Of a DNA stretch of 64,000 nucleotides, positions 3,001 through 21,771 are shown piece after piece. The notes beneath the pieces were generated by a model, which worked only from the letters and a program-made list of their open reading frames with translations, was not told the DNA's origin and searched no databases. The stretch lies in NCBI GenBank assembly GCA_045566075.1, contig JBJLEE010000005.1, forward strand, positions 1 through 64,000. The letters are read 5' to 3'. Position 1 is the stretch's first letter; each line of letters begins with the position of its first letter. The DNA is from Pirellulaceae bacterium. Lineage in GTDB: Bacteria > Planctomycetota > Planctomycetia > Pirellulales > Pirellulaceae. The position numbers and the translations under genes were made by a program.

Positions 3001-6000
3001 GAAAATGTTGATCTTCGAATTCGAAGACACAGATATTGCTGATGGCATCCAACAGGGTGACATTCAAATTGATTTCAGTACTGGTGATACCAATGAAAAT
3101 CTTGCTGATATCCTTGTTACTGCCATTACAGATGCTGACCTGGGACTGACTCCTAGAAATCTCGGTGATGGATTAGTACACATCGGCGGTACGGTTAATC
3201 ACGAGTTGATTACATCCAACAGCAACTTGTCTCAGTTTGGTACGCCAAGTGTTCGACACGAATTTGGTCTTCGAATCCCAACACGTGCTGGACAGATATT
3301 CAATGTTCAGGATGCAGAGACATTCGTCTTGAGAAAAGGTGCTGGCGTCCCAGTTACGTTTGAGCTTAATAATTTGAACGAAGATTCAGATTACACGCTC
3401 GGTAATATCAAGATCGACTTTACAAATACGACAAGCGTCGAACAGTTGGCTAACTCAATCGTCATTGCTATACAGGGTGCCGGACTAGACCTTGATCCGC
3501 AAATCGTTCCCGGTACATCTATTATTGATCTTGGTAGTGACGGAACGCATACGCTCAATGTGGCAAACACCAACATCGAACAAGTTGGTTTGCCGGGCGT
3601 GGATGGTGCGAATCCGGTATTTGTGCTGCCTGTGGAAGAATTTGATGCGATTCAAACAGCCGTTGCAATCAGAAGTGCATTTGAATTGGACGAGCTTCTT
3701 GCCGGAGTAACGGTGCGACAAGCTGGCGGCGCTTCATTGATCGTAAATGGTGCGAGCGTTGTAGCAGATCAAAGCGGTGAATTCCTAGTCGATGAATTCG
3801 GACGGCTGACACCATATCAGCTCTTTGAAATCGAAGATTTGGCCACGAACCCGCTGAAAGCAAATCAATTGTCTGGTGAAACGATGTTCACCATTCAACT
3901 GGATCGCGTGGATTACGATCTCGGTGATGCTCCGGATGGAGTAGGTGTTGCTCCGCAGAATTCCTATCCAACGCTCACCGGTCATAACGCGGCGATTCAC
4001 ATGACCATTGGAACTGGTCCGATCCTCGGTGAGCGACGTGACCGTGATATCGAAGGTCAGTCAATTGCTCTGGAAATGCCCGCCGGTGCGGACCTTACTG
4101 ACGGAGAGCAATTCTCTATCACTGCTGGGACGCGAACGGTAGTATTTGAATTCGACGATGATGGATCCGCGACCGCAGAGACTGTCGTCATCCCATTCAC
4201 CGCCGCAACGACCGCTGATGCACTGGCTCAGTCAGTAGTGGATGCAGTGAATACATCCGGCTTGGGATCAAACCCAAGAAACCTGGGAAGTGGCGTAGTT
4301 CTATTCGAAACGAATCAAAAATTCGATCTTTCAGCTGCCGATAGCCTAACTGAATTGCTGTCTGTCGGAGACGATCTGGATGGTAACAACTATGTTGTGG
4401 ATGCATCCGGTGTTACCGATGTGTCGACATCTGTCGGTGCAACTCCATTGTCAATCGTTGTTGCTGCCAATCAGGCAATCGCGCAAGGTGAGATATTTAC
4501 CATTACAAGCGGTTCTGACGTCTATACGTTTGAATTTGATAACGATGTTCTTGCCGTTGGTGTGACGGATGGAAATATACGTGTTCCATTTACACCTGGT
4601 GCAAGTGAAGACGTGGTTGCACAGAATATTGCTGATGCGATTGTTGCAGCCGATTTGCCATTGAATCTCAACCCAGTCGTGCAATCAGGTGGTGTTGTTG
4701 CCTTAAATGGCGATGATGAAGATGGTGTCACCGGTGTTGGCGGTGCTGCAATAATGCCACTAAACGCATTTACAGCAACCGAAATCGAAGTGTCAGCTTC
4801 CGGTGATGGATTGCTCGACGCATGGGTCGACTTCAATCGCGATGGTGATTGGGACGATCAGGGGGAACAGATCTTTGCGAGCGAGCAGGTTTCCGCAGGA
4901 GTTAACTCGCTGTCATTTAGTACACCACTTGAGCCGGATTCAAAACCGGGTGAAACTTATGCTCGATTCCGAATCAGTAGTGAAGGTGGTCTGGCACCTA
5001 CCGGACTTGCCAAAGATGGGGAAGTAGAAGACTACGTACTTACCATCGTTCCTGGGCATCCACCCGAAGCCAAGAATGATCCGGATGTTGGTGCAGATGG
5101 TTTTGACACTGATGAAGACACACCGCTTCCAACAGGTGGAAATAACCCGAGCTTGCTAACCAATGATCTGGATGCGGATGGTAATGATTTCCGCGTCAAT
5201 GATTTCGATGCGTTTAGTGCTCTTGGTGCCGAAGTCACGGTAAACACAGGATGGAAGATTGCTGATGGTGCAACTGCAGGTACCTTCACATATGATCCGG
5301 AATTTGATGATCCGAATGACGGAGTTGATAACCTGATTCAGGAGCTAGCCGCAGGTGATATCGTTACGGATACGTTTAGTTATTCACTTATCGAAGCTGC
5401 GACGGATCCACCTGGTGATCTAGGATCGGCACACTCGTTTGAATCTCAAACACGTGCAATTGTTGCTATCACACTTACCGGTGTGAATGACCAGCCAACA
5501 TCTGAAGATGTTGCACTTGCAGTAAACGAAGACGGTAATACGATTACCGCTTCATTCGTTGGTGATGATGTTGACCGCGATGACGATATCGACACGCTTA
5601 CCTATACGGTTATCAATGGGTTACCGGCAAACAGTGGTGGCTTGACAAACAACAACGACGGAACATTCACGTTTGATCCAAAGGCTCAAATCGATTTCCA
5701 ATGGCTGGGTGTTGATCCTATTACTGGACCAGAAACAACGGATGTAACGTTTACATATAACGCGACAGACAGGCACTCAGGTGTCAGCGTCGATAGTACT
5801 GTAACGATTACGGTGTCCGGCGAAAACGACCTGCCTGTGGCAGCAGATGATTCCTATAGCGTGGATCAGGATTCAACTCTAATTGAGACGGCTGCTAACG
5901 GTGTCATCCTTCATGATGATGGTGACAGCGTTGTGGATACGGATCCGGATGTTAATGACGTCCTTCTCGTTACTCAGGTTGATGGCACTGATCTCGTCGC

Positions 6001-8522: not shown

Positions 8523-9143
8523 ATGGAATCGAAAACGAATCTGGAGTTACTCGAACAAGCCAAACAAGGCGATAAGAGTGCACTTGGTGAATTGCTGATC
8601 AGATACCGGCCGTATCTTCGTATTCTAGCTCAGCGTCACATGGATGCAGCGATTCGAGTTCGTGTAGATCCATCTGACGTCGTGCAACAAACTAGTTTAG
8701 AGGCACATCGCGGAATTGACAGTTTCCGCGGAAATAGTGAAGGGGAATGGGTAGCCTGGGTACGAAAAATCCTTGAAAACAATGCAGCGCAAGCGATCAG
8801 ACTCCATCTTCTTACGCAGAAACGCAGTGCTCGTCGTGAAGTCTATCTGGATGAATCCAATTCAGCGGTTCACTCAGTAAAAGGTGGACTACGATCACGC
8901 GAAATCTCGCCGAGTAAGCGGGCAATGAATTCCGAACGAGCTGTGAAACTGGCATTGATGCTCCATCATTTGCCGGAATCGCAACGGGAGGCAATTCGGT
9001 TACGGTATCTGGAAGGTCGATCGCTTCAGGAGTTAGCTGAGAGCCTCGGTCGTAGCGAAACCGCCGTGGCGGGATTGCTAAAACGTGGCTTGCGAAACCT
9101 CAGGGATGATTCGGATGTCGGCGCTATGGACTCCCGGTTTTGA
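8523..9143 (+). CDS. ECF-family RNA polymerase sigma-70 factor
   Basis: Sigma-70 region 2-like segment LLIRYRPYLRILAQRHM...DPSDVVQQT. Region 4 HTH is LPESQREAIRLRYLEGRSLQELAESLGRSETAVAGLLKRGLRNL. The protein is 206 aa and a Ser/Thr kinase gene follows 55 bp downstream. Confidence 0.85.
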   Translation: MESKTNLELLEQAKQGDKSALGELLIRYRPYLRILAQRHMDAAIRVRVDPSDVVQQTSLEAHRGIDSFRGNSEGEWVAWVRKILENNAAQAIRLHLLTQKRSARREVYLDESNSAVHSVKGGLRSREISPSKRAMNSERAVKLALMLHHLPESQREAIRLRYLEGRSLQELAESLGRSETAVAGLLKRGLRNLRDDSDVGAMDSRF

Positions 9144-9198
9144 ATTAGACTACCGGAAATCTTTTCTCATTCTCCATCGGATATGTATTTGAGGGAAA

Positions 9199-11433
9199 AT
9201 GTCTGACGACTCTATGCGGGAATTTACAGACGAACCATCAGACCGAGAGCTCCGCATCAGCGAGTTACTGGCGCAATATCTGCGCGACCGTGATGAAGGT
9301 GAGTCCGACGACGAGGAGAAATTCCTTGCAGCAAATGAAGAGTTTGCGGACGATCTGCGAATGCTGCTTGACATGGGTCGCATCATCGAAGATATGGCGG
9401 GCCCGCTGGTAGAAAAAGACTCTGTGTACGACGAACAGGTCATGGAACTGTCCTCATCTAATCCGGCCACCGATGATTTAGATGATGATTCTCCATCTGC
9501 AACGGGTATCGATACTGGGACCGTGGTGTCCATGTCAGCGCGTGATCCGAATCAATCTGGTTCATTACCGGGAAAGGAACCAGCTGAACCTGAAGGTTAT
9601 CAATTTGGCGAATACGAGCTGCTCGAAGTGATTGGGCAGGGCGGAATGGGTATTGTTTACAAGGCAAGGCAACGCAATCTAGACCGCATGGTTGCCGTAA
9701 AGATGATCCGTGTTGGGAGCCTAGCACTTGATGATGAGATCAGCCGTTTCTACAGCGAAGCTCAGAAAGCTGGCAGAGCGGTACACCCCAATCTTATTTC
9801 GGTGTACGAGATTGGCGAACTGGACGACCGACACTACTATGCAATGCAATTCGTTGATGGCACAGATCTTGCAGAGTTGTTGCGACATGACAGAATCTCA
9901 AATAATCGCATCGCTGAAATACTCCGAGACGTATCCGAAGGCATGCATGCTGCTCATACACATGGTGTACTGCATCGAGACTTGAAACCGGCCAATGTTT
10001 TAGTACGCTTTTCCGATGGGTCAGCACTGGTCACTGATTTCGGACTGGCGAGGCAGGTTACAAACCCGGAGAATCTTACTCGTCCGGGTGACACGGTCGG
10101 TACTCCGAGTTACATGTCGCCAGAACAAGCGTCAGCTAAGACAGACGCCCTTTGTGCGGCTAGTGATGTGTATTCCATCGGTGCAATTCTCTACGAGATG
10201 CTATGCGGACGGCCTCCATTTCATGCAGAGTCCGCGGCCAGTACCGTGATGGAGGTGCTCAATCTCGATCCAACACCGCCGAGTCAATTACGGAGTAAGG
10301 TCAGCCCGGAACTAGAGGCCGTTTGTCTTAAGTGTCTCGCAAAAAATCCGGCGGACAGATATCAAACGGCAGAGGAATTGGCTGCGGAATTTAGCAGATT
10401 TCTGTCCGGTGCGCCTGTTCTGGCGGAATTGCCAAACAAGATGCTTCAGGGCCTTCGCTGGTTCAGAAATGTCCCGGCGATCGGGCGTATTACTGGAAAT
10501 ACAATGATTCGGCCCAAGTCAGCTCATCGTGTGGTCAATCATTGTTTGTGGGTCATACCTCTGCTGGTGATGCTTGGGATATTTGGCTGGGGCATTGTTA
10601 GGAATACTCTGGTACCTGCAGAGATCATGCTTGCGTCCGGTCAGCGTCATCATTTCTATCACGAGGTAGGCGAGAGCTTGCATCGTGCCGTCGCTCTCAG
10701 AGATGCCCGTGATCTGATAGTACGAAACACGGCAGGATCTCAGGAAAACGTCAATCTGGTGGTAGACGGTTCGGCACATCTGGCAATTGCCCAATGGGAG
10801 ACAATTCCCCAAACGGAAGAAATCGCCATTGTAGCGCCGTTGTTTCTTGATAAGGTCCACTTTGTGGTAAAGCAGGGTAGTGACATACGGTCGCTGGAGG
10901 ATCTCGAAGGCAGAAATGTATCACTTGGACTACCGAATTCCGGAATGCGCCTCACTTCAGAGAGGATTTTGAGAGTATGCGGAGTGGATACTTCAACGAT
11001 CGGCGAGAAGGACAGGTCCTTTGAGGATTTGCTAACGTTTCCACAAATGGAAGCGGCCATTATCACGACAAGCAGTTCGAACCCGGTGTTACATGGTTTA
11101 TTGGCCGATACACGTTTTCAGTTGATAACATTTTCACTGGAACAAATCGAAAAGCTACTGCAAACGGGCTACCGTCGAGATCGATTGATATCGAGGGACT
11201 TCCCCGATTCGGTTGGTCCCACGGGAATCCCAACCATTTCAACGATGGCATTTCTCATCACGCGAGTCAACAGCTCAGATGCGCTTGTAGAATCGACCTT
11301 GCATGCGTTGTATGACGAAATCGACAATCAGTCAGTAGCCAGTAAACTCGGATTAATAAAGCGTTCATTAGCGCGAGAGTTTTCTGTAAGATTTCACCCA
11401 TCGGCGGCACGCTTTTACTTGATAGCGGAATAA
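9199..11433 (+). CDS. Ser/Thr protein kinase, 744 aa. It has an N-terminal acidic domain of about 130 aa, a kinase core, a transmembrane segment and a C-terminal periplasmic solute-binding-protein-like domain
   Basis: Gly-loop IGQGGMGIVYKA, VAVK lysine, HRDLKPANVLV, DFGLAR and GTPSYMSPEQ. Hydrophobic stretch VVNHCLWVIPLLVMLGIFGWGIV. C-terminal IAIVAPLFLDKVHFVVKQGSDIRSLEDLEGRNVSLGLPNSGMRLTSERIL resembles TAXI/PhnD-type binding proteins. An SD-like GAGGGA lies before the ATG. Confidence 0.85.
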   Translation: MSDDSMREFTDEPSDRELRISELLAQYLRDRDEGESDDEEKFLAANEEFADDLRMLLDMGRIIEDMAGPLVEKDSVYDEQVMELSSSNPATDDLDDDSPSATGIDTGTVVSMSARDPNQSGSLPGKEPAEPEGYQFGEYELLEVIGQGGMGIVYKARQRNLDRMVAVKMIRVGSLALDDEISRFYSEAQKAGRAVHPNLISVYEIGELDDRHYYAMQFVDGTDLAELLRHDRISNNRIAEILRDVSEGMHAAHTHGVLHRDLKPANVLVRFSDGSALVTDFGLARQVTNPENLTRPGDTVGTPSYMSPEQASAKTDALCAASDVYSIGAILYEMLCGRPPFHAESAASTVMEVLNLDPTPPSQLRSKVSPELEAVCLKCLAKNPADRYQTAEELAAEFSRFLSGAPVLAELPNKMLQGLRWFRNVPAIGRITGNTMIRPKSAHRVVNHCLWVIPLLVMLGIFGWGIVRNTLVPAEIMLASGQRHHFYHEVGESLHRAVALRDARDLIVRNTAGSQENVNLVVDGSAHLAIAQWETIPQTEEIAIVAPLFLDKVHFVVKQGSDIRSLEDLEGRNVSLGLPNSGMRLTSERILRVCGVDTSTIGEKDRSFEDLLTFPQMEAAIITTSSSNPVLHGLLADTRFQLITFSLEQIEKLLQTGYRRDRLISRDFPDSVGPTGIPTISTMAFLITRVNSSDALVESTLHALYDEIDNQSVASKLGLIKRSLAREFSVRFHPSAARFYLIAE

Positions 11434-11483: not shown

Positions 11484-12167
11484 ATGGATCAGAATCAAAT
11501 TGATGATGTCTTGAAGCGAACGCTTAGTGATTTCCGGGTTTCCCGGGGTGAACGAAAGCTGCTTGAAGGGCTAATTCGACAATATGGCGACGCAGATCAT
11601 CAGATTGGAGTTTTGCGAAGCCGGGCGTTTGATGTGGCACGGGGTGAGACAACCGACCCACAAACGCTTCAATTGATCGATTGGCTTGAGGATGTCGTTA
11701 AGGTGTTTCAGATTCGTGACCAATCAGCGTTACCTGATGTGGAGGCTTATTTCAGCCCTGGAAGTGAGTGCTTAAATGCCATTCGCCGCCAGTTTGAAAA
11801 GGCCAGACATTCGGCAGACGTGTGTGTGTTCACGATCACAGACAACCGAATTTCGGATGCTATTCGTGACGCGCATGCAAGAGGGGTCAAGATCCGTGTT
11901 ATTAGTGATAATGACAAATCTCACGATGAGGGATCTGATATCCAACGTCTTGAGAACCTCGGCATTGCTGTAAGAGTAGATCACACGAATTATCACATGC
12001 ATCACAAGTATGCGGTTTTCGATGAGAAAACAACTCTCACTGGCAGTTATAACTGGACGCGTAGTGCAGCCGAGTACAACGAGGAAAACATCGTTATCAC
12101 CGCTGACAGCAGGATCACCAGGCAGTTTCTCAATGAGTTTGAGAAATTGTGGAAGTCCCTCTCTTAA
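11484..12167 (+). CDS. Phospholipase D-family (single HKD, Nuc-like) nuclease or phosphodiesterase with an N-terminal extension of about 90 aa of unknown function
   Basis: Exact HxK(x)4D(x)6GSxN motif: H-H-K-YAVF-D-EKTTLT-GSYN, at about nt 12000-12050. The protein is 227 aa. Confidence 0.8.
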   Translation: MDQNQIDDVLKRTLSDFRVSRGERKLLEGLIRQYGDADHQIGVLRSRAFDVARGETTDPQTLQLIDWLEDVVKVFQIRDQSALPDVEAYFSPGSECLNAIRRQFEKARHSADVCVFTITDNRISDAIRDAHARGVKIRVISDNDKSHDEGSDIQRLENLGIAVRVDHTNYHMHHKYAVFDEKTTLTGSYNWTRSAAEYNEENIVITADSRITRQFLNEFEKLWKSLS

Positions 12168-12270
12168 GCACGTCATTGCTGAATTTCAGCCGATCATGCG
12201 GATTGGTTACGTGGTCTCAGGCACTGCCTGAGCTCCCATGCGGGTGAAATAACCCTCACAACCAGTATGA

Positions 12271-12297
12271 CTGGAAAAGGAATCTTATCTTTTCCAG
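12271..12297 (+). promoter_or_regulatory. Perfect 9-bp inverted repeat with a 9-nt loop (ctggaaaag-gaatcttat-cttttccag) in the 210-bp gap between the PLD-like gene and the NfeD-like gene
   Basis: Read directly. There is no U-tract after it, so it is more likely an operator or RNA structure than an intrinsic terminator. Confidence 0.5.
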
Positions 12298-12377
12298 ACT
12301 TTGTAGCTTGCTATGAATCGGATTTTCCGACTGATTGCGTGGGGTAATTCATACTAAATGAGGAAATTAGGAACCTT

Positions 12378-13046
12378 ATGGACGCACTAACCCAATTTGC
12401 AGAAACAGCTCTTAGCGGTGAATTGATCCCGGCTACGTCGGTGATTCTATTCATTCTCGCTTACTGGCTGTTTTCACTCGTCAGCGGAATCGGATTCGAT
12501 GCAATCGATTTTGATTTTGGCGTAGACGCTGAATTGGATGCTGGCGACATGTTTATGGGGATCGGCCTGATGCCACTTCGTTGGCTTAATTTGGGTGCGA
12601 TTCCTGTAATGCTTTGGTTGACTATTTTTGGAATCTTTTGGTTTATCGTTTCTTATGTCATGCGTATGGGATTCGAGCATTACACAGATACGTCGACGAA
12701 TTGGGACGTAACACTGCTGAGTTTGCGAAACGCGGCCTTTGCACTGTTACCGACGAAATTTCTGACTAATCCAATGCGGGACTGGTTCAGAATTGACGAG
12801 TTTGATCCGAATTCTTTCGTTGATTTGACAGGTATGACACGTATACCTATGACACCATCGAAAGTTGGACGCGTATCGGTACGACAACCAAAAGACAATT
12901 CGGATGTAATCCTCAGGGCGGTTACGGCTGAAGGTGAGATTAAATCACGCCAGCCTGTGCTGATTGTGGGTTACGACAAATCACGTGGAGTTCATATTGT
13001 CGTTGAGTCGAGTGAAAACCGAGACACAGCGACGGATGTTTCATAA
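12378..13046 (+). CDS. NfeD-like (YqiJ/YuaF-type) membrane protein, the usual partner of flotillin
   Basis: N-terminal hydrophobic helices LFILAYWLFSLVSGIGF and IPVMLWLTIFGIFWFIVSYVM. C-terminal beta-rich segment GRVSVRQP...VILRAVTAEGEIKSRQPVLIVGYDKSRGVHIVVES resembles the NfeD OB-fold. The stop lies 8 nt before the flotillin start. Confidence 0.55.
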   Translation: MDALTQFAETALSGELIPATSVILFILAYWLFSLVSGIGFDAIDFDFGVDAELDAGDMFMGIGLMPLRWLNLGAIPVMLWLTIFGIFWFIVSYVMRMGFEHYTDTSTNWDVTLLSLRNAAFALLPTKFLTNPMRDWFRIDEFDPNSFVDLTGMTRIPMTPSKVGRVSVRQPKDNSDVILRAVTAEGEIKSRQPVLIVGYDKSRGVHIVVESSENRDTATDVS

Positions 13047-13054
13047 ATCGTAAT

Positions 13055-15229
13055 ATGGGGTTTAGTACGATGTTTACATCAAGCCTGTTTGCTAATCTGG
13101 TTGATACGTTAACCAGTATTGGTATTGGAATTGGAGCAGTGTTCCTTTTCCTGATCATTCTGGTAGCGATTTTTTCGCGATTCTATGTCAAGGTGGGACC
13201 AGAACGTGCGGTAATTCGTACAGGATTCGGCGGTATCAAAGAAGCCGTTGGAAAAGGTATGATCGTGATTCCTGTCTTCCACAAGAAGGAATTCATGGAT
13301 ATGTCCGTCAAGCGTATTGAGATTAAGCGCTCAAACGAAGACGGTCTAATCTGTCGCGATAACATCCGTGCTGATATTGAAGTTGCATTCTATGTGCGTG
13401 TTTCAGAAAGTGGCGTGAAAGACGTTGCTAAGAAACTCGGTGCTGCCCGTGCTTCAGATCGCAACGCTCTTATTGAGTTGTTCGACGCTCAGTTTTCAGA
13501 AGCACTTAAGACCATCGGTAAACAATTTGATTTCGTAGAACTGTATACCGAACGTGATCGCTTCAAAGTTGAGATCATGAACATTATCGGTTCGGATACG
13601 GAAGATTTGCAAGGCTATGAAATGGTCAGCGTTGCAATCGATTACCTTGAACAAACACCGCTCGAGATGCTAAACCCCAACAACATCCTCGATGCGGAAG
13701 GTATCAAGAAGATCACCGACCTTACTAGCCGTGAGGCAATTCGCTCAAACGACATTGCACGAGAAAAAGAAAAAGCAATTACAAAGCAGGACGTCGAAGC
13801 ACGAGAAGCCATTCTCGCACTTGAGCGTCAACAGGTTGAAGCGGAAGAACGCCAAAAGCGTGAAATCGCCGAAGTCACTGCACGCGAAGTTGCTCAGGGA
13901 GAAGTCGTTGAACACGAAGAACTCCTGCGTTCAGAAAATGCACGACTTGCTACTGAAGAAGAAGTTGCTGTTCGTGAAGAAAACAAACTACGACAGATCA
14001 TTGTTGCTGCCAAGAACAAGGAACGTACCGATGCGGTCGAAACAGAACGCGTTGAACGGGACCGCGGCTTGGAATCAACTGAACGCGAACGAGTGGTTTC
14101 TCTGGCTGATATCAACAAAGACAAAGAGATCGAGGTTGAGAAACGAAATATCCAGGAAGTAATTCGCGAACGTGTGATCGTTGAAAGAACGGTCGTGGAA
14201 GAACAAGAAAATATCCGTGACGTTGAAGAATTCAAACGGGCAGATCGTGATAAGCGAGTTGCGATTACCAACGCAGAACGCGATGCAGAAGAAGCTTTGG
14301 TTAAGGACGTGAAAGCGGCGGAAGCAGAGAAGAAAGCTGCTATCTTTACCGCTGATCAGGTTGTAACTCTCGCTGAAGCAGATCGTCAAAAAGCTGAAAA
14401 AGAAACGCAGGCTACCAAGATGCTTGCTGAAGCAAAGCAAGCCGACGTGGCAGCTGATGGTTTGGCAGAAGCACAGGTCCAGGAAGCTAAAGCAACCGCC
14501 CTTGAAAAAGAGGGCTTTGCAGAAGCAGCCGTTGTACAACGTACAGCCGAAGCCGAAGCAAAAGGATTGGAAGCCAAGGCTGTTGGTGTCGAAAAACACG
14601 GTACAGCTGAAGCAGAAGTCATGCGTCTTAAGTACTCAAGTGAAGCGAATGGTATCGAAGAGAAAGCTGGTGCGATGAAACTCTTCGATGCAGTTGGCAA
14701 AGAACACGAAGAGTTCAAGCTGCGACTCAACAAAGATCTCGAAATCGAACGAGCTGCAATCGATGCTCAACGTCAGATTGCAGAAGCCCAGTCGAATATC
14801 GTTGGCGAGGCTCTTAAGTCCGCCCGTATCGATATCGTCGGTGGCGAAACCACATTCTTCGATAAGATCGTTGATTCGGTCAAGGGTGGTAAGGCCGTTG
14901 ATAGATTCGTCTACAACAGTCAGGTTGCTACCGATATCAAGGACACGTTCTTTAATGGCGATCCGGAATACTTTCAGACTCGAATTCTAGAACTTACGGA
15001 TACGTTCAACCTAAGCACAGACGACGTGAAGGATCTCTCCATCGCTGCTTTGATAGCCAAAATGCTTGGCCTGACGAGCAACAACTCGATGCGGGAAGAA
15101 CTGCAACGAATGCTCGGATTAGCGCACACCTCTGGTGTAGCTGATAACAAGGCTTCGTCTGTTATCCGAACGGTCACAGCTGCCTCGGCTCCAACCAAGC
15201 CGGCTGCTGATGAAAGCTCGGACAGCTAA
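13055..15229 (+). CDS. Flotillin-like SPFH/band-7 protein (FloT/YqiK family), unusually long at 724 aa
   Basis: N-terminal TM IGIGIGAVFLFLIILVAIF. SPFH core ERAVIRTGFGGIKEAVGKGMIVIPVFHKKEFMDMSVKRIEIKR...DNIRADIEVAFYVRV. A long Glu/Ala/Lys-rich coiled coil (AEAEKKAAIF...EAKATALEKEGFAEAAVVQRTAEAEAKGLEAKAVGVEKHGTAEAE) is typical of flotillins. Confidence 0.85.
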   Translation: MGFSTMFTSSLFANLVDTLTSIGIGIGAVFLFLIILVAIFSRFYVKVGPERAVIRTGFGGIKEAVGKGMIVIPVFHKKEFMDMSVKRIEIKRSNEDGLICRDNIRADIEVAFYVRVSESGVKDVAKKLGAARASDRNALIELFDAQFSEALKTIGKQFDFVELYTERDRFKVEIMNIIGSDTEDLQGYEMVSVAIDYLEQTPLEMLNPNNILDAEGIKKITDLTSREAIRSNDIAREKEKAITKQDVEAREAILALERQQVEAEERQKREIAEVTAREVAQGEVVEHEELLRSENARLATEEEVAVREENKLRQIIVAAKNKERTDAVETERVERDRGLESTERERVVSLADINKDKEIEVEKRNIQEVIRERVIVERTVVEEQENIRDVEEFKRADRDKRVAITNAERDAEEALVKDVKAAEAEKKAAIFTADQVVTLAEADRQKAEKETQATKMLAEAKQADVAADGLAEAQVQEAKATALEKEGFAEAAVVQRTAEAEAKGLEAKAVGVEKHGTAEAEVMRLKYSSEANGIEEKAGAMKLFDAVGKEHEEFKLRLNKDLEIERAAIDAQRQIAEAQSNIVGEALKSARIDIVGGETTFFDKIVDSVKGGKAVDRFVYNSQVATDIKDTFFNGDPEYFQTRILELTDTFNLSTDDVKDLSIAALIAKMLGLTSNNSMREELQRMLGLAHTSGVADNKASSVIRTVTAASAPTKPAADESSDS

Positions 15230-15357
15230 TTAGAACTTGTAACGAATCGTCGAGCCTGGTGGTGCAAACGGCCAGGCTTCGACGTGGTTACCAGCTCTGG
15301 TAGTAGTAGCCCGGGGCTGGTTATTGTCTCAAACACGTTGGTGAAAGAACGGTCTCG

Positions 15358-18300
15358 ATGTCACAAGCAGATCTCGACCAAACACCTGAACAACAGCCGG
15401 ATGGCGAACCGCAATCCCAGCAATTGGAGAGCGGAACGTACGAAATCATTCGAAATCGGCTGGCCAATCATGCATCTGACCTACGTGATCGACTCAGTAA
15501 GCTTAACGCTTCCCGTAAAGACGTGTTTGGTGCAATTGAAACGACTCTAAAGGGAACCGACCGGGTAACCACAGAGCACAATTGTACACCCCGGGATATG
15601 ATCGCCATCGGCGAGCATTTTATCTTTGGGTACAACATCCATTTTGGGCTCAAAGCAACGATCCATCCGGACGATGTGTTTGCTACGTACAAGTTCGACG
15701 GTGAGCACTTTCAGGCCATCGAGTCGGAATTCTCACAAGACCCGCAGTTTCAACGTGACTTTGCAGAGATATACAAATACTACAAGAATGCAGAGTTTGC
15801 CAAATTCTTCGTAATCGGCCCCTTCCTTTATATGGCCTTCCAAGTGGGGAAGAGTGTCACCGAGCTGAAAAGTTTAAAATGGCGAATCGAAAGCGACTCA
15901 CTGGTCTACGTCGACAACCGAAGTGATCATGAAGTTCGATTTCCTGATCAACACGACTTCAGTTGGAAACGTGTGTCACGCGACCTGTTTGTAGAAGGTG
16001 CACACCCCCACGTCTCGATCGAAGATCACGTCTTCGTGGAGACGATAGGTGGGGATTTGACGATCAAAGTTGAAAACAACACCTCTGACGGAGTGGGGCT
16101 ATATTCAGAACCTGTTCAGAACGCCGACCAAACGCTTGATGATTCAGAGATTTACTATGCAATCGTTGGCAGCCTGGTATTACTCAAGATTAAACCGTAC
16201 CAGGAAGATGCGTATCGCTACTTTATCTTTAACGAGAAAGTGCAATCGGTTTATCGTGTTGATTCATTAGAAACAAGCTGTGTTTTGTTGCCCGATGATC
16301 ACGGCGTCATTTTTTCCAATGGGTATTCTCTGGTCACCGGAGAACATAAGACTTTTGATACCGATTTGCAGGGAATGCTGTTTGATAGTCGACTAGAAGC
16401 ATCAAATGGCGAAGACTTCCTGTACGTGTTCTACAATCCCGAATCCGGTGTGTATGTTCAACTGAGATATAACCTGATTAATCAGGAAGTAGACACACCA
16501 GTGATTTGCCATGGTGCGGCATTTTTCCCGGCCGGCGAAATGATCTGCTTCAGGGCGGAACCCGATGCCCAAAAACATCACACGCTTCAGATCTGGCAAA
16601 CCCCGTACGTGGAAGACGGACTCGGCCCGGAATCTCAATCCGACTCTTTTCTGTTTAAGATCGGTAACAAAGAAATCGTTCGCGGAATGGCTGAATGTCA
16701 TGAGGTCATTGGCCTGATCGAGAAGGATGATACGTACGCAGACCTCTATGTCGACCTGGTGAAGAAGTCTGGTGATATTGTTGATAGTTACTTTTGGGCG
16801 TCTGACGACCAATGTGCGAATCTCTCAGCACCGCTTGCAGAAATTCGTATTGCTGCTGAATCCGCAATAGATGAATTTGAGAAGGTCGTCCGTGTTAAGC
16901 AAAACACCGTCAAGCAATCTGCCGAAATAGAACAGCGATCGGCCGAAGTGCTGCGTGAAGCCAAGAACAAGCGATTCGATAATATCGATGACTTCGTTAA
17001 GTCGCTTGCCGAAATGCGTACAGTTCGGGGTGAGATCATTTCACTAAAAGAACTGCGCTACATCAATATGGAATTGGTGGAGCGACTTGGTGAAGAGATC
17101 GCCGAAGCCAGTGATCGTCTGGCTACGCGTTGCGTGGAGTTTCTTCTAAGAGATGATGCCCTGGCGCCGTATGAAACTCGCATTAAGGAGCAAACAGCCT
17201 CCATAGACGGCCTCAAGAAAGTGACAGATGCGCGTGATCTCGAAGAAGACATTGCCGATGGTGCTGGCGAGTTGGAAATGCTGATCGATATTGTCAGTAA
17301 TCTAAACATCGAAGATGCGACACATCGAACTCAGATCATCGATAACATTTCCGCCATCTTTGGCCAGGTGAATACCGCCCGTGCCACGCTAAAGACGAAG
17401 ATCAAAGACTTGATGAGCGTTGAAGGCGTGGCCGAATTTAATTCGCAAATGAAGCTGCTCAACCAGGCGGTCGTGAATTATCTAGATATATGCGATACAC
17501 CGGACAAGTGTGAAGAATTCCTCACCAAAGTAATGATTCAGCTTGAAGAGTTGGAAGGCCGCTTCGCTGAATTTGATGAATTCGTTGTGCAATTGACGGA
17601 TAAACGTGAGGAAATCTATAACGCGTTTGAAACACGAAAGCTGTCACTGATTGAAGCACGCAATAAACGTGCAGAAGCTCTAAGCCGGGCAGCGGACCGA
17701 ATCCTTGGTGGTATTAAGTCGCGGATTGATAGTCTTGAATCAGTAAACGACATCAATGCGTATTTCGCTTCAGACTTAATGATCGAAAAAATCCGTGATT
17801 TAGTCGATCAGCTTAAGGATCTGGAGGATACGGTCAAAGTTGATGATATTCAAAGTCGTCTAAAGTCAATTCGCGAAGATGCAGTTCGACAACTCAAAGA
17901 TCGAAAAGAGTTGTTCGTTGACGGCGAGAATGTCATTAAGTTTGGCAAACACCATTTCTCCGTGAATGTTCAGGCATTGGATCTCACGACAGTCATGCGT
18001 GACGACGATATGTATTTGCATCTGACGGGTACGAATTTCTTCGAACGACTTGTTGATGAGACGCTCGACTCAACGCGGGATGTATGGGACCAGGAGGTCA
18101 TATCAGAAAACCGCGATGTTTATCGGGCTGAATATCTTGCATCAAAGATGTTTAACCATTTGTCTCAGTCTGCTGAGATGTCCAAGTCAGGTTACGGACG
18201 GCTTGCCGAAGATGAACGCCTGTCTGCACTGCAGAAATTTATGGGGCCGCGGTATACAGAAGCCTATGCAAAAGGTGTTCACGATCTCGATGCTGAGAAG

Positions 18301-20643
18301 ATCTTGTTTGGCCTGATCGAAATGGATGCAACGATCGGTTTGCTCAGATACGACTCGAGAGCTCGTGCTGCAGCCCGATTGTTCTGGAATTACTTCTGTG
18401 ATCCGACTCAAAGAAACCTGATGACAGCACGACTCAGGGGTGTAGGTACAATTGGTCAACTGTTCCCGGATGTAAAGGAACAAGCACAATATGTTGCCGA
18501 ACTCCAGCCACTCGTGGACGAGTTTGTTGAGTCGACAGGAGTCATTGATGCGAAATTCGCATCACAGGTGTCAAACTACCTGTACGAAGAATTGACGACG
18601 AACGATTTCTTTGTCATTGCACGTCAGGCTATCGATTTATTTGATGCATTTGAACGTCATCTGAAACAAAACAGCTTTGTCGGAAAATTCCAGGAATCGC
18701 TGAAAGGTGTAAAAGGTGATCCACTAAGCCAATTCGTGCTCATTTGTGACTGGATCGAAGCATTTCTGGCTGCACATCCACAGCATGAACGTGCTGAGGA
18801 TTATATCGCTGAATTGGCCGTCATTCTGATGGCTGGACAACCGGATCGTAAACACGTTATCGATGGTACGGTTGATAAATCGATTGACGGTATGATCGGA
18901 TCGCACGCCACAATCGATGGCGGTGTTTACAAGCTGAACTTCAATGACTTCGTAACAAAGCTCAATCAATACAACAAGGCGGTCGTACCGCGATACCGGG
19001 ACTACATCGACATTAAGAAGTCGGTTGTGGATGTTGCACGTGATGATATGCGTCTCGACGAGTTTACGCCGAGAGTCATGACGTCATTTGTTCGTAACCG
19101 CCTGATCGATGAAGTCTATTTGCCACTTATTGGCGACAACCTGGCAAAGCAGATGGGTGTTGTCGGTGAAGACAAGCGAACGGACCTGATGGGGATGTTA
19201 CTGCTCATCTCGCCACCGGGTTACGGAAAGACGACATTGATGGAATATGTCGCTAATCGACTGGGTATTATTTTCATGAAGATCAATGGCCCGGCCATCG
19301 GTCATGCAGTCACTTCATTGGATCCGGAACAAGCATCCAATGCGGGCGCACGAGAAGAAGTTGAAAAGCTGAATCTGGCGTTGGAAATGGGTGACAACGT
19401 CATGATTTATCTAGACGATATCCAGCACTGCAATCCGGAATTCCTGCAAAAGTTCATTTCATTGTGTGATGCCCAGAGAAAAATAGAAGGTGTATATAAA
19501 GGTAAGACAAAGACATACGATCTGCGTGGACGTAAAGTCTGCGTTGTCATGGCTGGAAACCCGTATACAGAAAGCGGTGAGAAATTCCAGATTCCAGACA
19601 TGCTTGCAAACCGTGCTGACATTTATAACCTGGGTGAAATCATCGGTGATAGCGCAGAGGTATTTGAGCTCAGTTATCTCGAAAATTGCTTAACAAGTAA
19701 TCCGGCGCTAAACCTGCTTGCCAGTCGCAGCCAGAAAGATGTTCACGGTGTTATTAAGATCGCTCAGACGGGCAGTCGTGAAGGTATCGAACTTGAAGGA
19801 AGCTACTCTGCTGTCGAAGTGAATGAAATGGCCGAAACCATGAAGAAACTCATGACAGTTCGAGACCTCATTCTCACCGTAAACCGTGAGTACATCAGAA
19901 GTGCTTCGCAAGCGGATGAATACCGTACAGAGCCACCATTTAAACTTCAGGGTTCCTATCGAAATATGAATCGCATTGCTGAGAAGGTCGTGCCGATTAT
20001 GAATGACAAGGAACTCGAAACCCTGATCCTCAGTAATTATGAAAATGACTCTCAGACGCTTACGTCCGACACCGAGTCTAACATGCTCAAGGTCAAGGAA
20101 ATGATGAGCCTCCTATCGGAAACGGAGCAACAGCGCTGGGAAGATATCAAGAAAGCATTTGCTCAGGCGGTCAAGCTAAAGGGAATCGGATCTGACGATC
20201 AAACTGCTGCTGTCCTTCTACAATTACAGGAATTCAGCAACGGTTTACAGGATATCAAGGATACGATTTCCGGTGGCATCTCCAAGATGGCAGATCAATC
20301 CGGTGTTGAAACGGAGAGTGGTGGAGAAACCGCAGAGGCACTTCGATTGCTAGCAGAGGAATTGAGGGCGTACACCACCGGAAGTGTACCAGTTGACACG
20401 AATCAGGCTGTGCAGCGTGTTGCGGTAATGCACAAAGTGCCGAAGTCCATTCTGGGTGTTATGGAAAACCAGTTTGACATTATGCGAGGCTGGTTAAAGC
20501 CGCTGATGGATGTAAGCCAGGCAAACCAGGAAGGTGTTTCTGAACTGACAAGTGCCGTGGAGAAATGCCTGACCTCCTATCAGCAGCTTCTTGGAGAACT
20601 TGAAGATTCCGATGATATTCGCAGTGCTGATGAGGACGACTAA
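15358..20643 (+). CDS. Giant (1761 aa) protein with a single McrB/MoxR-like (AAA_5-type) P-loop NTPase module embedded at about residues 1270-1450. It has an N-terminal beta-rich domain, a coiled-coil region of about 800 aa and an acidic C-terminal tail
   Basis: Walker A LLLISPPGYGKTT (nt about 19219-19236). Walker B VMIYLDDIQ (nt about 19411-19419). Asn-Pro sensor segment KVCVVMAGNPYTESGEKFQIPDMLANRADIYNLGEI. N-terminal beta-rich region HFIFGYNIHFGLKATIHP...LQIWQTPYVED. Tail DSDDIRSADEDD. Confidence 0.8.
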   Translation: MSQADLDQTPEQQPDGEPQSQQLESGTYEIIRNRLANHASDLRDRLSKLNASRKDVFGAIETTLKGTDRVTTEHNCTPRDMIAIGEHFIFGYNIHFGLKATIHPDDVFATYKFDGEHFQAIESEFSQDPQFQRDFAEIYKYYKNAEFAKFFVIGPFLYMAFQVGKSVTELKSLKWRIESDSLVYVDNRSDHEVRFPDQHDFSWKRVSRDLFVEGAHPHVSIEDHVFVETIGGDLTIKVENNTSDGVGLYSEPVQNADQTLDDSEIYYAIVGSLVLLKIKPYQEDAYRYFIFNEKVQSVYRVDSLETSCVLLPDDHGVIFSNGYSLVTGEHKTFDTDLQGMLFDSRLEASNGEDFLYVFYNPESGVYVQLRYNLINQEVDTPVICHGAAFFPAGEMICFRAEPDAQKHHTLQIWQTPYVEDGLGPESQSDSFLFKIGNKEIVRGMAECHEVIGLIEKDDTYADLYVDLVKKSGDIVDSYFWASDDQCANLSAPLAEIRIAAESAIDEFEKVVRVKQNTVKQSAEIEQRSAEVLREAKNKRFDNIDDFVKSLAEMRTVRGEIISLKELRYINMELVERLGEEIAEASDRLATRCVEFLLRDDALAPYETRIKEQTASIDGLKKVTDARDLEEDIADGAGELEMLIDIVSNLNIEDATHRTQIIDNISAIFGQVNTARATLKTKIKDLMSVEGVAEFNSQMKLLNQAVVNYLDICDTPDKCEEFLTKVMIQLEELEGRFAEFDEFVVQLTDKREEIYNAFETRKLSLIEARNKRAEALSRAADRILGGIKSRIDSLESVNDINAYFASDLMIEKIRDLVDQLKDLEDTVKVDDIQSRLKSIREDAVRQLKDRKELFVDGENVIKFGKHHFSVNVQALDLTTVMRDDDMYLHLTGTNFFERLVDETLDSTRDVWDQEVISENRDVYRAEYLASKMFNHLSQSAEMSKSGYGRLAEDERLSALQKFMGPRYTEAYAKGVHDLDAEKILFGLIEMDATIGLLRYDSRARAAARLFWNYFCDPTQRNLMTARLRGVGTIGQLFPDVKEQAQYVAELQPLVDEFVESTGVIDAKFASQVSNYLYEELTTNDFFVIARQAIDLFDAFERHLKQNSFVGKFQESLKGVKGDPLSQFVLICDWIEAFLAAHPQHERAEDYIAELAVILMAGQPDRKHVIDGTVDKSIDGMIGSHATIDGGVYKLNFNDFVTKLNQYNKAVVPRYRDYIDIKKSVVDVARDDMRLDEFTPRVMTSFVRNRLIDEVYLPLIGDNLAKQMGVVGEDKRTDLMGMLLLISPPGYGKTTLMEYVANRLGIIFMKINGPAIGHAVTSLDPEQASNAGAREEVEKLNLALEMGDNVMIYLDDIQHCNPEFLQKFISLCDAQRKIEGVYKGKTKTYDLRGRKVCVVMAGNPYTESGEKFQIPDMLANRADIYNLGEIIGDSAEVFELSYLENCLTSNPALNLLASRSQKDVHGVIKIAQTGSREGIELEGSYSAVEVNEMAETMKKLMTVRDLILTVNREYIRSASQADEYRTEPPFKLQGSYRNMNRIAEKVVPIMNDKELETLILSNYENDSQTLTSDTESNMLKVKEMMSLLSETEQQRWEDIKKAFAQAVKLKGIGSDDQTAAVLLQLQEFSNGLQDIKDTISGGISKMADQSGVETESGGETAEALRLLAEELRAYTTGSVPVDTNQAVQRVAVMHKVPKSILGVMENQFDIMRGWLKPLMDVSQANQEGVSELTSAVEKCLTSYQQLLGELEDSDDIRSADEDD

Positions 20644-20670: not shown

Positions 20671-21576
20671 CTAATCGCGGTTGGTAAAGAATAAACCGCT
20701 CGCAATCATGGCTAACGACACAAACAGCCATGAACTCATTTCATCATTTCTAAACATTGCGGTAAATGCGATACCGAAAACAGGTGTGAGAAATGAGAAC
20801 ATCGATATTTGACTGGCGGCATACGTCTTAAGTAACACGGCCTGTATGGCAAAGCATGCGCCTGCCACGAGTACACCCTGATATACCAACCCAAGAACCG
20901 CCGGTGTTGTGAATTGGTCTGGATTCACATCTTCGGTTAATGCTGCCACGATAAAAAAGAACACGACGCCAACCAATTCATGCCATGCCATGAACGAGCC
21001 CGTCTCCATTTTGTTTAGCGCATATTTTGTAAACAGAATTTTGACTGCCAGAACGAATCCACTGGCCATCAACAATATGTCGCCGAGCATGGTGGCTTCG
21101 TCAACCGACGGCGTTTCTCCCGCAGATTCTGGTTTTGTCAGTATGACCAATATCGCGCCACCGGCCGCTAATCCGATTCCGATCAATCGTGATGCACTGA
21201 GCCTGTGGATTCGTGAAACGTAGTGATCTGACAGCACCACCCAAAAAATGAACGTGTTGATTAAAAGACTGGTGTGAGATGAGTTGGATTCAGCCACACC
21301 GATCGTAAAAAGTGCGATTTGGCTGAACAGCAATAGACCGCCAATAATTATTAACGGGAGCTGTTCTCTGGAAATGCTCAGTGAGCACTTTTCAAAACGA
21401 CACCAAATGAACATAACAACGACGGCCATCGAAAACCGAATACCGGAAACGGTAATGGGCGGTATGGTATCGACACTGTATTTTGCAGCGACTGCATTAC
21501 CTGCCCATAAGACGCAGGTAAGCAATGTGAGCATGACGGCCGCCGCCGACATTCTGGGCGACTCGAGTTCCCTCAT
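20671..21576 (-). CDS. DMT-superfamily (EamA-like) 10-TM transporter
   Basis: Hydrophobic protein with two internal repeats of about 140 aa (AAAVMLTLLTCVLWAGNAVAAKY... and ...LLMASGFVLAVKILFTKYALNKM...). The listed ORF extends to 21693, but its first 40 codons look non-native, so the start was placed at the internal Met (MRELESPRM). Convergent with the giant ATPase gene, 27 bp away. Confidence 0.55.
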   Translation of the reverse strand: MRELESPRMSAAAVMLTLLTCVLWAGNAVAAKYSVDTIPPITVSGIRFSMAVVVMFIWCRFEKCSLSISREQLPLIIIGGLLLFSQIALFTIGVAESNSSHTSLLINTFIFWVVLSDHYVSRIHRLSASRLIGIGLAAGGAILVILTKPESAGETPSVDEATMLGDILLMASGFVLAVKILFTKYALNKMETGSFMAWHELVGVVFFFIVAALTEDVNPDQFTTPAVLGLVYQGVLVAGACFAIQAVLLKTYAASQISMFSFLTPVFGIAFTAMFRNDEMSSWLFVSLAMIASGLFFTNRD

Positions 21577-21771
21577 ATTCACGCTCGATTTGTGCTCAGA
21601 TGATGCGTTCAATTGACTGTCGTGGTGTAAATCAAAGCTGACAACAGAGAATGAGATGTGCTGACTATAGGATGCGTGCATCCTAATCCACATTGTCGGA
21701 GGTGACTATACGAGGATTGGTGTTGTCATGATGCCACATGATGGTGATTATGAAACCTCTGCATTTCTTTA

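Follow-up and report, generated by a model that had tools for sequence, protein, structure and literature searches.

Four genes standing in line on the + strand of a Pirellulaceae contig raise the question of what a phospholipase D (PLD)-like protein, a short NfeD-like membrane protein, a flotillin and a giant AAA+ ATPase have to do with each other. The locus lies in a 64-kb stretch of DNA from a Pirellulaceae bacterium (assembly GCA_045566075.1, contig JBJLEE010000005.1, positions 1-64,000 of the forward strand), hereafter called the window. A first-pass annotation, made from the sequence alone, had reported the four genes as a candidate membrane-associated system that it did not recognise. 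The gene set, including the optional HKD hydrolase, is however already described in the passages of Ravi et al. (2024, mSystems; PMC11237479) that deal with PspA-associated operons. We are confident that the locus is a planctomycete member of the module described there, composed of a YqiJ/NfeD-like protein, a flotillin and a beta-propeller AAA+ ATPase. Comparative genomics had tied this gene set to the phage-shock (PspA) response to membrane stress before; no new kind of system comes to light here, and a specialist in Psp comparative genomics would not be surprised by the locus.

The conservation of the gene neighbourhood was tabulated from the side of the ATPase gene, in 80 loci of reference genomes and two of complete genomes, the open reading frames (ORFs) of which were annotated with profiles of the window proteins. 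Loci with at least 3.5 kb of sequence upstream of the ATPase gene were considered informative (n = 63). In 61 of these the ATPase gene is preceded by a flotillin gene of the same strand, usually as its direct neighbour, and a YqiJ/NfeD-like gene is found just upstream of the flotillin gene in 55. The census loci originate from Planctomycetota, Verrucomicrobiota, Lentisphaeria, Bacteroidota, Clostridia and Desulfobacterota. With the same order and strand recurring in 61/63 loci from many phyla, chance is far from sufficient to explain the arrangement, and the three core genes constitute a genuine conserved module. The triad is also present in Vibrio (ATPase 28% identical), Halopseudomonas, Saccharothrix and Myxococcus and with a further, 29%-identical ATPase, so that the linkage holds even at 28-29% ATPase identity, as in Vibrio, Saccharothrix and Myxococcus. 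The linkage of the four genes, which the first-pass annotation had proposed, is thereby borne out for its core part; homologues of the ATPase are not usually encoded apart from flotillin and NfeD-like neighbours. The only well-flanked loci having neither a flotillin nor a YqiJ-like gene upstream of the ATPase gene are L017 and L035. Six others (L030, L054, L060, L068, L073 and L078) have the flotillin and the ATPase with no detectable YqiJ-like gene; in L030 and L068 its position is taken by a gene of 335-381 aa that is unannotated, gives no Pfam match and may be a divergent or replacement partner.

According to the passages of Ravi et al. on these operons, the full form consists of a CesT/Tir-PspA dyad and three further genes, one of them for a YqiJ/YuaF protein with three transmembrane (TM) segments, an HKD phospholipase D is added in some Proteobacteria, and abbreviated operons without CesT/Tir-PspA are widely distributed (PMC11237479). 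The window shares several traits with this module. Its flotillin combines a TM segment (aa 22-40), a band-7 domain (1.5e-12) and a coiled coil, its ATPase has an N-terminal helix, a beta-propeller and an AAA+ module as judged from an AlphaFold2 model and Foldseek, a multi-TM protein of the YqiJ/YuaF type adjoins the flotillin with an 8-bp gap, and the same-strand gene order is kept across lineages. The CesT/Tir-PspA dyad of the full form is absent, which fits the abbreviated form; no PspA or CesT homologue was detected by phmmer (E<=10) in any ORF of the window. The PspA/CesT-containing form of Ravi et al. was reproduced in the census, where unbiased clustering of neighbouring genes revealed 17 loci in which PspA/IM30 (E=9e-41) immediately precedes the YqiJ-like gene. 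A CesT_Tir_1 gene (1e-56) commonly stands before PspA in these loci, and a divergent HTH regulator is often present. In Bacteroidota, PspA is found in the same operon as the triad. The window locus is an abbreviated, PspA-less form to which an HKD gene and the clade's own extracytoplasmic function (ECF) sigma factor and Ser/Thr kinase have been added.

The surroundings of the triad vary between lineages. In five Bacteroidota loci (L010, L019, L034, L041 and L051) one to four small, variable and mostly unannotated genes are inserted between the flotillin and ATPase genes, and one of them (L010, 8612-9241) is DMP19-like (7e-28). The Halopseudomonas triad (L169) is divergent from an adjoining DUF2170-PspA-ion channel-DUF2491-DUF350-DUF1190-GSP_synth operon, a polyamine-type Psp context, and a rhomboid protease gene (L169, 5430-5987) lies approximately 260 bp upstream of its YqiJ-like gene on the same strand. 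In Vibrio chagasii (L087, 4022-23691) the triad is part of an island-like region with RNA ligase, HD/KTI12/AAA_33 kinase and R2K genes, an RNA-repair-type set, upstream and HTH-HipA, TelA, NUDIX and NAD-salvage genes downstream.

The giant ATPase is the signature protein of the module. The first-pass annotation had assigned to it one nucleoside triphosphatase (NTPase) module of the McrB/MoxR type; the single AAA+ module was confirmed, whereas two Pfam domains, DUF3686 (aa 41-479, E=7e-182) and DUF7902 (aa 600-683), had been missed. The AAA+ module (aa ~1281-1405) matches AAA at 9e-7 (29.8 bits) and AAA_5 at 2.1e-5 (25 bits, cut-off 22), and the AAA, AAA_5 and RuvB_N matches together cover aa 1270-1405. 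When scanned separately, the middle and C-terminal regions gave no Pfam match. An AlphaFold2 model of aa 1-700, with a predicted local distance difference test score (pLDDT) of 81, comprises a helix (aa 25-57), a beta-rich part (aa 63-414) and helical bundles (aa 431-699), which are spectrin-like and include DUF7902. Foldseek matches of the beta-rich part are generic beta-propellers only (WD40, Kelch, six-bladed CyRPA and paraoxonase, E ~1e-5), and aa 63-414, inside DUF3686, are modelled as a beta-propeller. Beyond the propeller and the bundles there is a long helical middle region; the AAA+ module (about aa 1240-1470) follows, and the C-terminus is again helical. The model of the C-terminal part (pLDDT 71) shows a generic AAA+ fold, the best matches of which (MCM, RuvB, NorQ and dynein) are all weak; NorQ is a MoxR-type protein. 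Sequence matches in PDB to Cdc48/p97 (E ~3e-5) do not extend beyond the Walker A region. The McrB-like reading gains no support from these weak similarities; PADLOC gave no McrBC-type match, and no McrC-like gene was found. No TM segment was detected in the ATPase by hydropathy analysis.

The Walker A sequence SPPGYGKTT and the Walker B core DDIQH are identical in 28/28 ATPase sequences, down to 30% identity, and the sensor motifs GNPYT, NR and LQGSYR are nearly identical across the same set, because of which the AAA+ module looks catalytically competent. The family is large, with at least 4,499 close matches and 972 clusters at 50% identity; relatives occur in no fewer than 584 species-level genomes, and the phyletic distribution of the family is sporadic. 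Some members (P0470, P0479, P0488, P0492, P0494-P0496, P0498 and P0514) contain in addition a PilZ domain (PF07238); among them, the member for which an organism is named belongs to Myxococcota. The domain hints at control of the ATPase by cyclic di-GMP in that lineage.

In databases the family is named 'ATPase involved in DNA repair' (Pfam) or 'DNA repair ATPase' (NCBI), and the name has been carried through annotations such as that of PA14_16190. If it were correct, the giant protein would be a DNA-repair ATPase and its flotillin neighbours incidental. Apart from the names, only the weak fold similarity to RuvB and MCM (E ~1e-6, query-normalised TM-score ~0.2) speaks for such a function, and that similarity is generic to AAA+ proteins. 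Pfam scans, including those of sub-regions, detected no nucleic-acid-binding domain in the ATPase, no paper supporting the name was found, and two membrane-protein neighbours conserved to the extent described above (61/63 loci) are incompatible with an incidental association. The DNA-repair reading, which rests on the database name only, was rejected as highly improbable, and the name itself is very likely misleading.

The flotillin label was borne out, as the N-terminal 248 aa match Band_7/SPFH at 1.5e-12. The full-length 724-aa protein gave no Pfam match, which is probably an effect of the composition filter on its glutamate- and alanine-rich coiled coil. A single N-terminal TM segment (aa 22-40, hydropathy) is followed by the SPFH/Band_7 domain (~aa 46-200), the long coiled coil and a C-terminal region strongly conserved among orthologues. 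Identity to the Symmachiella and Gimesia orthologues is 63-66% and to that of Vibrio 24% (E=1e-20). No match to the Pfam Flot domain was obtained with aa 201-479, with aa 480-724 or with 11 orthologues, though the composition-bias filter may mask such a domain. For the NfeD-like protein, its own match to YqiJ_N is weak (E=2e-4, 21.9 bits, below the cut-off of 23), but 3/11 orthologues sampled across phyla match YqiJ_N clearly (best 3.6e-8). Hydropathy analysis revealed two to three hydrophobic segments, of which aa 22-40 and 73-91 are TM-like, and the C-terminal soluble domain is beta-rich. Neither the whole protein nor aa 121-222 matched Pfam NfeD, and the soluble domain of YuaF (2k14) aligned to the equivalent region at a non-significant E=0.39. 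Searches of PDB sequences with the flotillin (full length, SPFH fragment and 11-sequence profile) and with the NfeD-like protein yielded nothing significant; by this measure no solved structure is detectably related to either of them.

The assignment of the first gene to the single-HKD PLD family proved correct (PLDc_2 E=5e-33, aa 101-223, intact HKD motif). The motif HMHHKxAxFD...GSYNWTRSA...NEEN is invariant in 11 members of the subfamily, with HxK(x)4D and GSxN intact. The PLDc_2 domain is preceded by a conserved helical extension of ~95 aa, in which a Pfam sub-region scan found no known domain, and hydropathy analysis found no TM segment in the protein. Calling it a nuclease, as had been done in the first-pass annotation, is premature because its closest solved relatives in PDB are MitoPLD/Zucchini (5e-29) and not Nuc or NucT (~1e-10).

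The place of the PLD gene in the cluster was approached from both sides. In the ATPase-centred census it is present in 6/82 loci, i.e., missing from about 93% of them. Aligned from end to end, with the extension, the window PLD shares 45-46% identity with the PLD proteins of two Verrucomicrobia loci, where the gene sits two genes downstream of the ATPase gene. From the PLD side, 3/3 informative planctomycete contexts carry the module. Among 80 metagenomic loci fetched with the PLD-subfamily profile, the module is found in 19, with the PLD gene upstream of the YqiJ-like gene in 16 and directly after the ATPase gene in three; in two of the latter its start abuts or overlaps the ATPase stop. At least three different gene orders are seen when the PLD gene accompanies the module. 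It is a recurrent accessory of the module, belonging to one specific MitoPLD/Zucchini-like subfamily, and not part of the core.

The four ORFs of the first-pass annotation and the gaps of 210, 8 and 128 bp between them were confirmed from the ORF coordinates (Table 1), as was the convergent end of the cluster, where a minus-strand EamA transporter ORF (20671-21693) lies 27 bp past the ATPase stop. On the upstream side the cluster probably extends beyond the region originally reported, to an ECF sigma factor and a Ser/Thr kinase encoded directly 5' of the PLD gene (8523-11433). The kinase consists of a kinase domain (aa 139-395), a TM segment (~aa 445-467) and a C-terminal solute-binding-like NMT1_3 domain (aa 486-740), and probably acts as a stress or ligand sensor partnered with the sigma factor. 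The order sigma-kinase-PLD-NfeD-flotillin-ATPase of the window is found also in loci L096, L112 and L128, and the alternative order PLD-sigma-kinase-NfeD-flotillin-ATPase in L085 and L111. Since it recurs inside related clusters in two different arrangements, the pair is, we infer, probably dedicated to regulating the cluster in this clade of planctomycetes. The closely related loci L083 and L084 lack the pair but keep the flanking synteny: a giant cadherin-like protein is encoded upstream, and the genes for D-serine dehydratase and EamA lie downstream.

Table 1. Genes of the cluster in the window, with the AAA+ module of the giant ATPase; values are E-values of the domain matches.
Feature	Position	Strand	Matches and role
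ECF-type sigma factor, 206 aa	8523..9143	+	Sigma70_r4_2 4.8e-13, Sigma70_ECF 4.2e-7
Transmembrane Ser/Thr protein kinase, 744 aa	9199..11433	+	Pkinase 1.4e-52, NMT1_3 1.9e-22
Single-HKD phospholipase-D-superfamily protein (PLD), 227 aa	11484..12167	+	PLDc_2 5.3e-33; accessory
YqiJ/YuaF-type short NfeD-like membrane protein, 222 aa	12378..13046	+	YqiJ_N 2e-4; core
Flotillin-like SPFH protein, 724 aa	13055..15229	+	Band_7 1.5e-12 on aa 1-248; core
Giant soluble AAA+ ATPase, 1761 aa	15358..20643	+	DUF3686, DUF7902, AAA+; core, signature gene of the module
AAA+ nucleotide-binding module inside the giant ATPase, about aa 1240-1470	19075..19767	+	Pfam AAA/AAA_5/RuvB_N

It could be argued that the PLD gene and the sigma/kinase pair are mere lineage neighbours and that the three-gene core alone is the functional unit. 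The rarity of the PLD gene in the ATPase-centred loci, the existence of 11 well-flanked loci of the PLD subfamily lacking the module, the Symmachiella and Gimesia clusters, which lack PLD, sigma factor and kinase alike, the 210-bp spacer and an element before the NfeD-like gene that could be a promoter of its own are all in line with this. Yet the same PLD subfamily, extension included, occupies at least three positions in different phyla, twice abutting or overlapping the ATPase stop, and the sigma/kinase pair lies inside the cluster in two different orders. The probability that a small family adjoins one 10-kb locus of a multi-megabase genome by chance is, by our estimate, well under 1%. An HKD gene is reported for proteobacterial versions in the passages of Ravi et al. 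as well (PMC11237479). Mere neighbourhood of the additional genes is considered quite unlikely.

The promoter element mentioned above, a 'cATACt'-like sequence upstream of the YqiJ-like start (window 12351-12356), is the sole block common to the seven upstream regions aligned, those of the window and of L001, L002, L023, L083, L084 and L085; 'GGTTTTCGTGATCCGT' is additionally common to L001 and L002 upstream of the YqiJ-like gene. The element may be a promoter, the evidence being too weak for a call. In a consensus scan of 8.2-21.9 kb, which does not cover planctomycete promoters, promoter-like sites were fewer than in shuffled sequence, and no convincing terminator was seen at the gene ends. 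Within the 128-bp spacer between the flotillin and ATPase genes there is a 7-bp inverted repeat, AGCCTGG...CCAGGCT, with a 12-nt loop (window 15253-15278), a putative attenuator or RNA-processing site that could set the flotillin:ATPase ratio.

Further away from the cluster, window positions 56-8212 are occupied by a giant ORF of at least 2718 aa, which possibly extends past the window start. Its domains are of the cadherin-like, Big_9, GEVED and dockerin types. A homologue occupies the same position upstream of the PLD gene in L083 and L084 and is thus syntenic with the cluster. A sigma-54 enhancer-binding protein (GAF, Sigma54_activat and HTH_8) is encoded at 44479-46332, 24 kb from the cluster, and the G+C content of positions 62001-64000 is 0.59 compared to about 0.48 in the remainder of the window.

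An experimentally studied counterpart of the full form appears to be the bacABCDEF operon of Pseudomonas aeruginosa ('biofilm-associated cluster', PA3732-PA3727), a six-gene, sigma-54-dependent operon with a DUF2170/CesT-Tir protein as BacA and PspA as BacB (PMC10948618). BacC is a short NfeD and BacD the flotillin PaFlo3; BacE is annotated as 'ATPase involved in DNA repair', the name that DUF3686 bears in annotations, and BacF is uncharacterised. The operon is a single transcript by reverse-transcription PCR, and BacB-F are 6-13-fold up in a bacA mutant. The phenotypes reported for it (biofilm, rhamnolipid and virulence) come from bacA and bacB mutants and not from the ATPase. PA3728-PA3732 were induced in all phage-infected samples.

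This induction touches the suggestion, made in the first-pass annotation, that the cluster could be a defence module. In a membrane-anchored anti-phage or abortive-infection system the scaffold would sense the perturbation of the membrane by a phage, the NTPase would transduce the signal and an HKD nuclease would be the effector; Zucchini-type HKD enzymes can indeed be nucleases. PADLOC (PADLOC-DB v2) weakly matches the PLD protein to DrmC (1e-10), MkoC (2e-9) and DpdK (2e-8), but these are generic HKD models, the kinase likewise matches generic Pkinase-containing models, and the NfeD-like protein, the flotillin and the ATPase are without any match. The supposed effector is missing from most ATPase loci, whereas the core triad is constant. 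While the ATPase family is sporadically distributed and its Vibrio copy lies among HipA, RNA-ligase/kinase repair, TelA and NAD-salvage genes, the neighbours in the window are ordinary chromosomal genes, the synteny of which is conserved among relatives. The recurrent partners of the module, PspA and CesT/Tir, are envelope-stress genes, and the Psp stress response, too, is classically switched on by phage. A defence function is, all in all, very unlikely. The evidence favours instead the other option of the first-pass annotation, that of a membrane-remodelling or repair machine.

On balance, the best overall explanation is that the locus is a member of the known module with a function in envelope stress, in which the ATPase remodels the flotillin/NfeD scaffold. 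There is precedent for an SPFH scaffold working with an AAA+ enzyme in HflK/C-FtsH, and cages have been solved also for QmcA-YbbJ and Flot1/2. By analogy with these structures and from sequence, the flotillin with its one TM helix and the polytopic YqiJ-like protein would build an SPFH scaffold or cage at the inner membrane, on its cytoplasmic side. The subsequent steps are more conjectural. The soluble ATPase would dock on the scaffold via its beta-propeller and long helical arm, and ATP hydrolysis would drive scaffold assembly, opening, disassembly or the extraction of clients, in a manner analogous to the action of Vps4 on ESCRT-III or of FtsH inside HflK/C. Where a lineage has PspA in the operon, the ATPase may act on PspA polymers as well. 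The soluble MitoPLD-like enzyme, when present, would modify a local substrate, most plausibly an anionic phospholipid such as cardiolipin and less likely a nucleic acid. Under envelope stress the cluster would be switched on by the ECF sigma factor and by the kinase, the solute-binding-like domain of which would lie outside the cytoplasm. For scaffold remodelling as the specific mechanism the chances are slightly short of even. The fullest version of the proposal, in which the DUF3686 protein is an ATP-driven remodeller or disassembler of SPFH cages, a functional counterpart of Vps4 or NSF retained in many bacterial phyla, supplemented in some lineages by a MitoPLD-like hydrolase of the cardiolipin type and switched here by the sigma/kinase pair, is a tentative suggestion that may well prove wrong.

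The closest competitor to scaffold remodelling is quality control of membrane proteins, with the ATPase being an unfoldase or extractase that pulls damaged or unfolded membrane proteins out of a flotillin microdomain, in the way of FtsH within HflK/C though lacking a protease domain, and that leaves the scaffold itself unremodelled. SPFH cages enclosing AAA+ proteases are an established theme (HflK/C with FtsH, prohibitin with the m-AAA protease), and a beta-propeller combined with conserved ATPase motifs would be suited to the recognition of clients. Flotillin microdomains of Staphylococcus aureus are reported, in the passages of PMC11222466 concerned with them, to stabilise unfolded proteins. 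However, neither a protease nor a partner chaperone gene is conserved in the ATPase neighbourhoods of the census, and no classical pore-loop or Cdc48-like architecture was apparent in the ATPase, its sequence similarity to Cdc48/p97 in PDB ending at the Walker A region. The available data do not separate client extraction from scaffold remodelling; we regard quality control as unlikely.

Several points weigh against the envelope-stress and scaffold-remodelling explanation favoured here. No pore-loop or substrate-threading signature was established in the ATPase by PDB sequence and fold searches, and the weak MCM, RuvB and NorQ matches do not settle its AAA+ clade. No paper naming DUF3686, PF12458 or DUF7902 and no experiment on the family was found; a literature check yielded two SPFH papers without mention of the ATPase. 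Because there is no PspA or CesT in the window, the PspA link at this locus is indirect. The link between the window and BacE/BacF rests on annotations and operon composition, because their identity with the DUF3686 ATPase and PLD was not confirmed by sequence: the supplements say 'hypothetical protein', and no P. aeruginosa entry was among the top 120 matches of the homologue search seeded with the Vibrio ATPase. Deletion of paFlo3 lowers biofilm by only about 20%. As to the accessory genes, sequence does not tell lipid from RNA as the PLD substrate, and the 11 PLD loci lacking the module have no other conserved neighbour. The promoter/terminator scan does not inform on operon structure, co-transcription in this organism thus being predicted only.

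Bacterial flotillins are widespread and their molecular function is still debated. An ATPase that is nearly always found beside a flotillin/NfeD pair, in at least nine phyla, offers an experimental handle on the assembly or recycling of the scaffold. What is new here is that the module and its HKD accessory are extended to Planctomycetota and Verrucomicrobiota, that the HKD enzyme belongs to a specific MitoPLD/Zucchini-like subfamily, recruited repeatedly, and that in one clade an ECF sigma factor/Ser-Thr kinase pair has become connected with the module. If the proposal in its fullest version were true, a MitoPLD-like hydrolase would locally rewrite the lipid composition of the membrane during envelope repair.

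The cluster can be compared with known systems at several levels. NfeD and flotillin form a canonical two-gene operon, as in yqiJK of Escherichia coli and yuaF-floT of Bacillus subtilis. The window resembles these in the tight coupling of the NfeD-like and SPFH core (8-bp gap), the N-terminal anchoring of the SPFH protein and the long coiled coil, and differs in that those pairs lack the giant DUF3686 ATPase. FtsH, the AAA+ partner of HflK/C, is a membrane-anchored protease, whereas the ATPase of the window is soluble and has a beta-propeller and no protease domain. The likeness to Vps4/ESCRT-III and to archaeal CdvB/CdvC is a functional analogy only, consisting in an AAA+ ATPase gene beside the gene of a membrane-remodelling polymer. 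Unlike Vps4, the window ATPase has no MIT domain and carries a helix, a beta-propeller and helical bundles at its N-terminus instead; its similarity to classical AAA proteins is confined to the Walker A region, and its constant partner is flotillin and not PspA. PspA itself belongs to the ESCRT-III superfamily, as given in the passages of PMC11237479 on the family; how assembly is controlled in PspA homologues that lack an accompanying AAA ATPase is, according to the same paper, not known. The PLD protein shares the single HKD domain and the size class of MitoPLD/Zucchini and Nuc/NucT, and differs from them all by the ~95-aa N-terminal helical extension; the TM anchor of MitoPLD is missing from it.

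Compared to the bac operon of P. aeruginosa, which is sigma-54-dependent and includes the CesT/PspA dyad, the window cluster has neither of these features and has the ECF sigma factor and the kinase instead. With respect to the module of Ravi et al., the HKD gene mentioned there for some Proteobacteria is found here in Planctomycetota, where it precedes the YqiJ-like gene, and in Verrucomicrobia and other metagenomic lineages, where it follows the ATPase gene, while the embedded ECF sigma factor/Ser-Thr kinase pair, which does not appear in the passages of that paper on these operons, is a feature of the clade to which the window belongs (PMC11237479).

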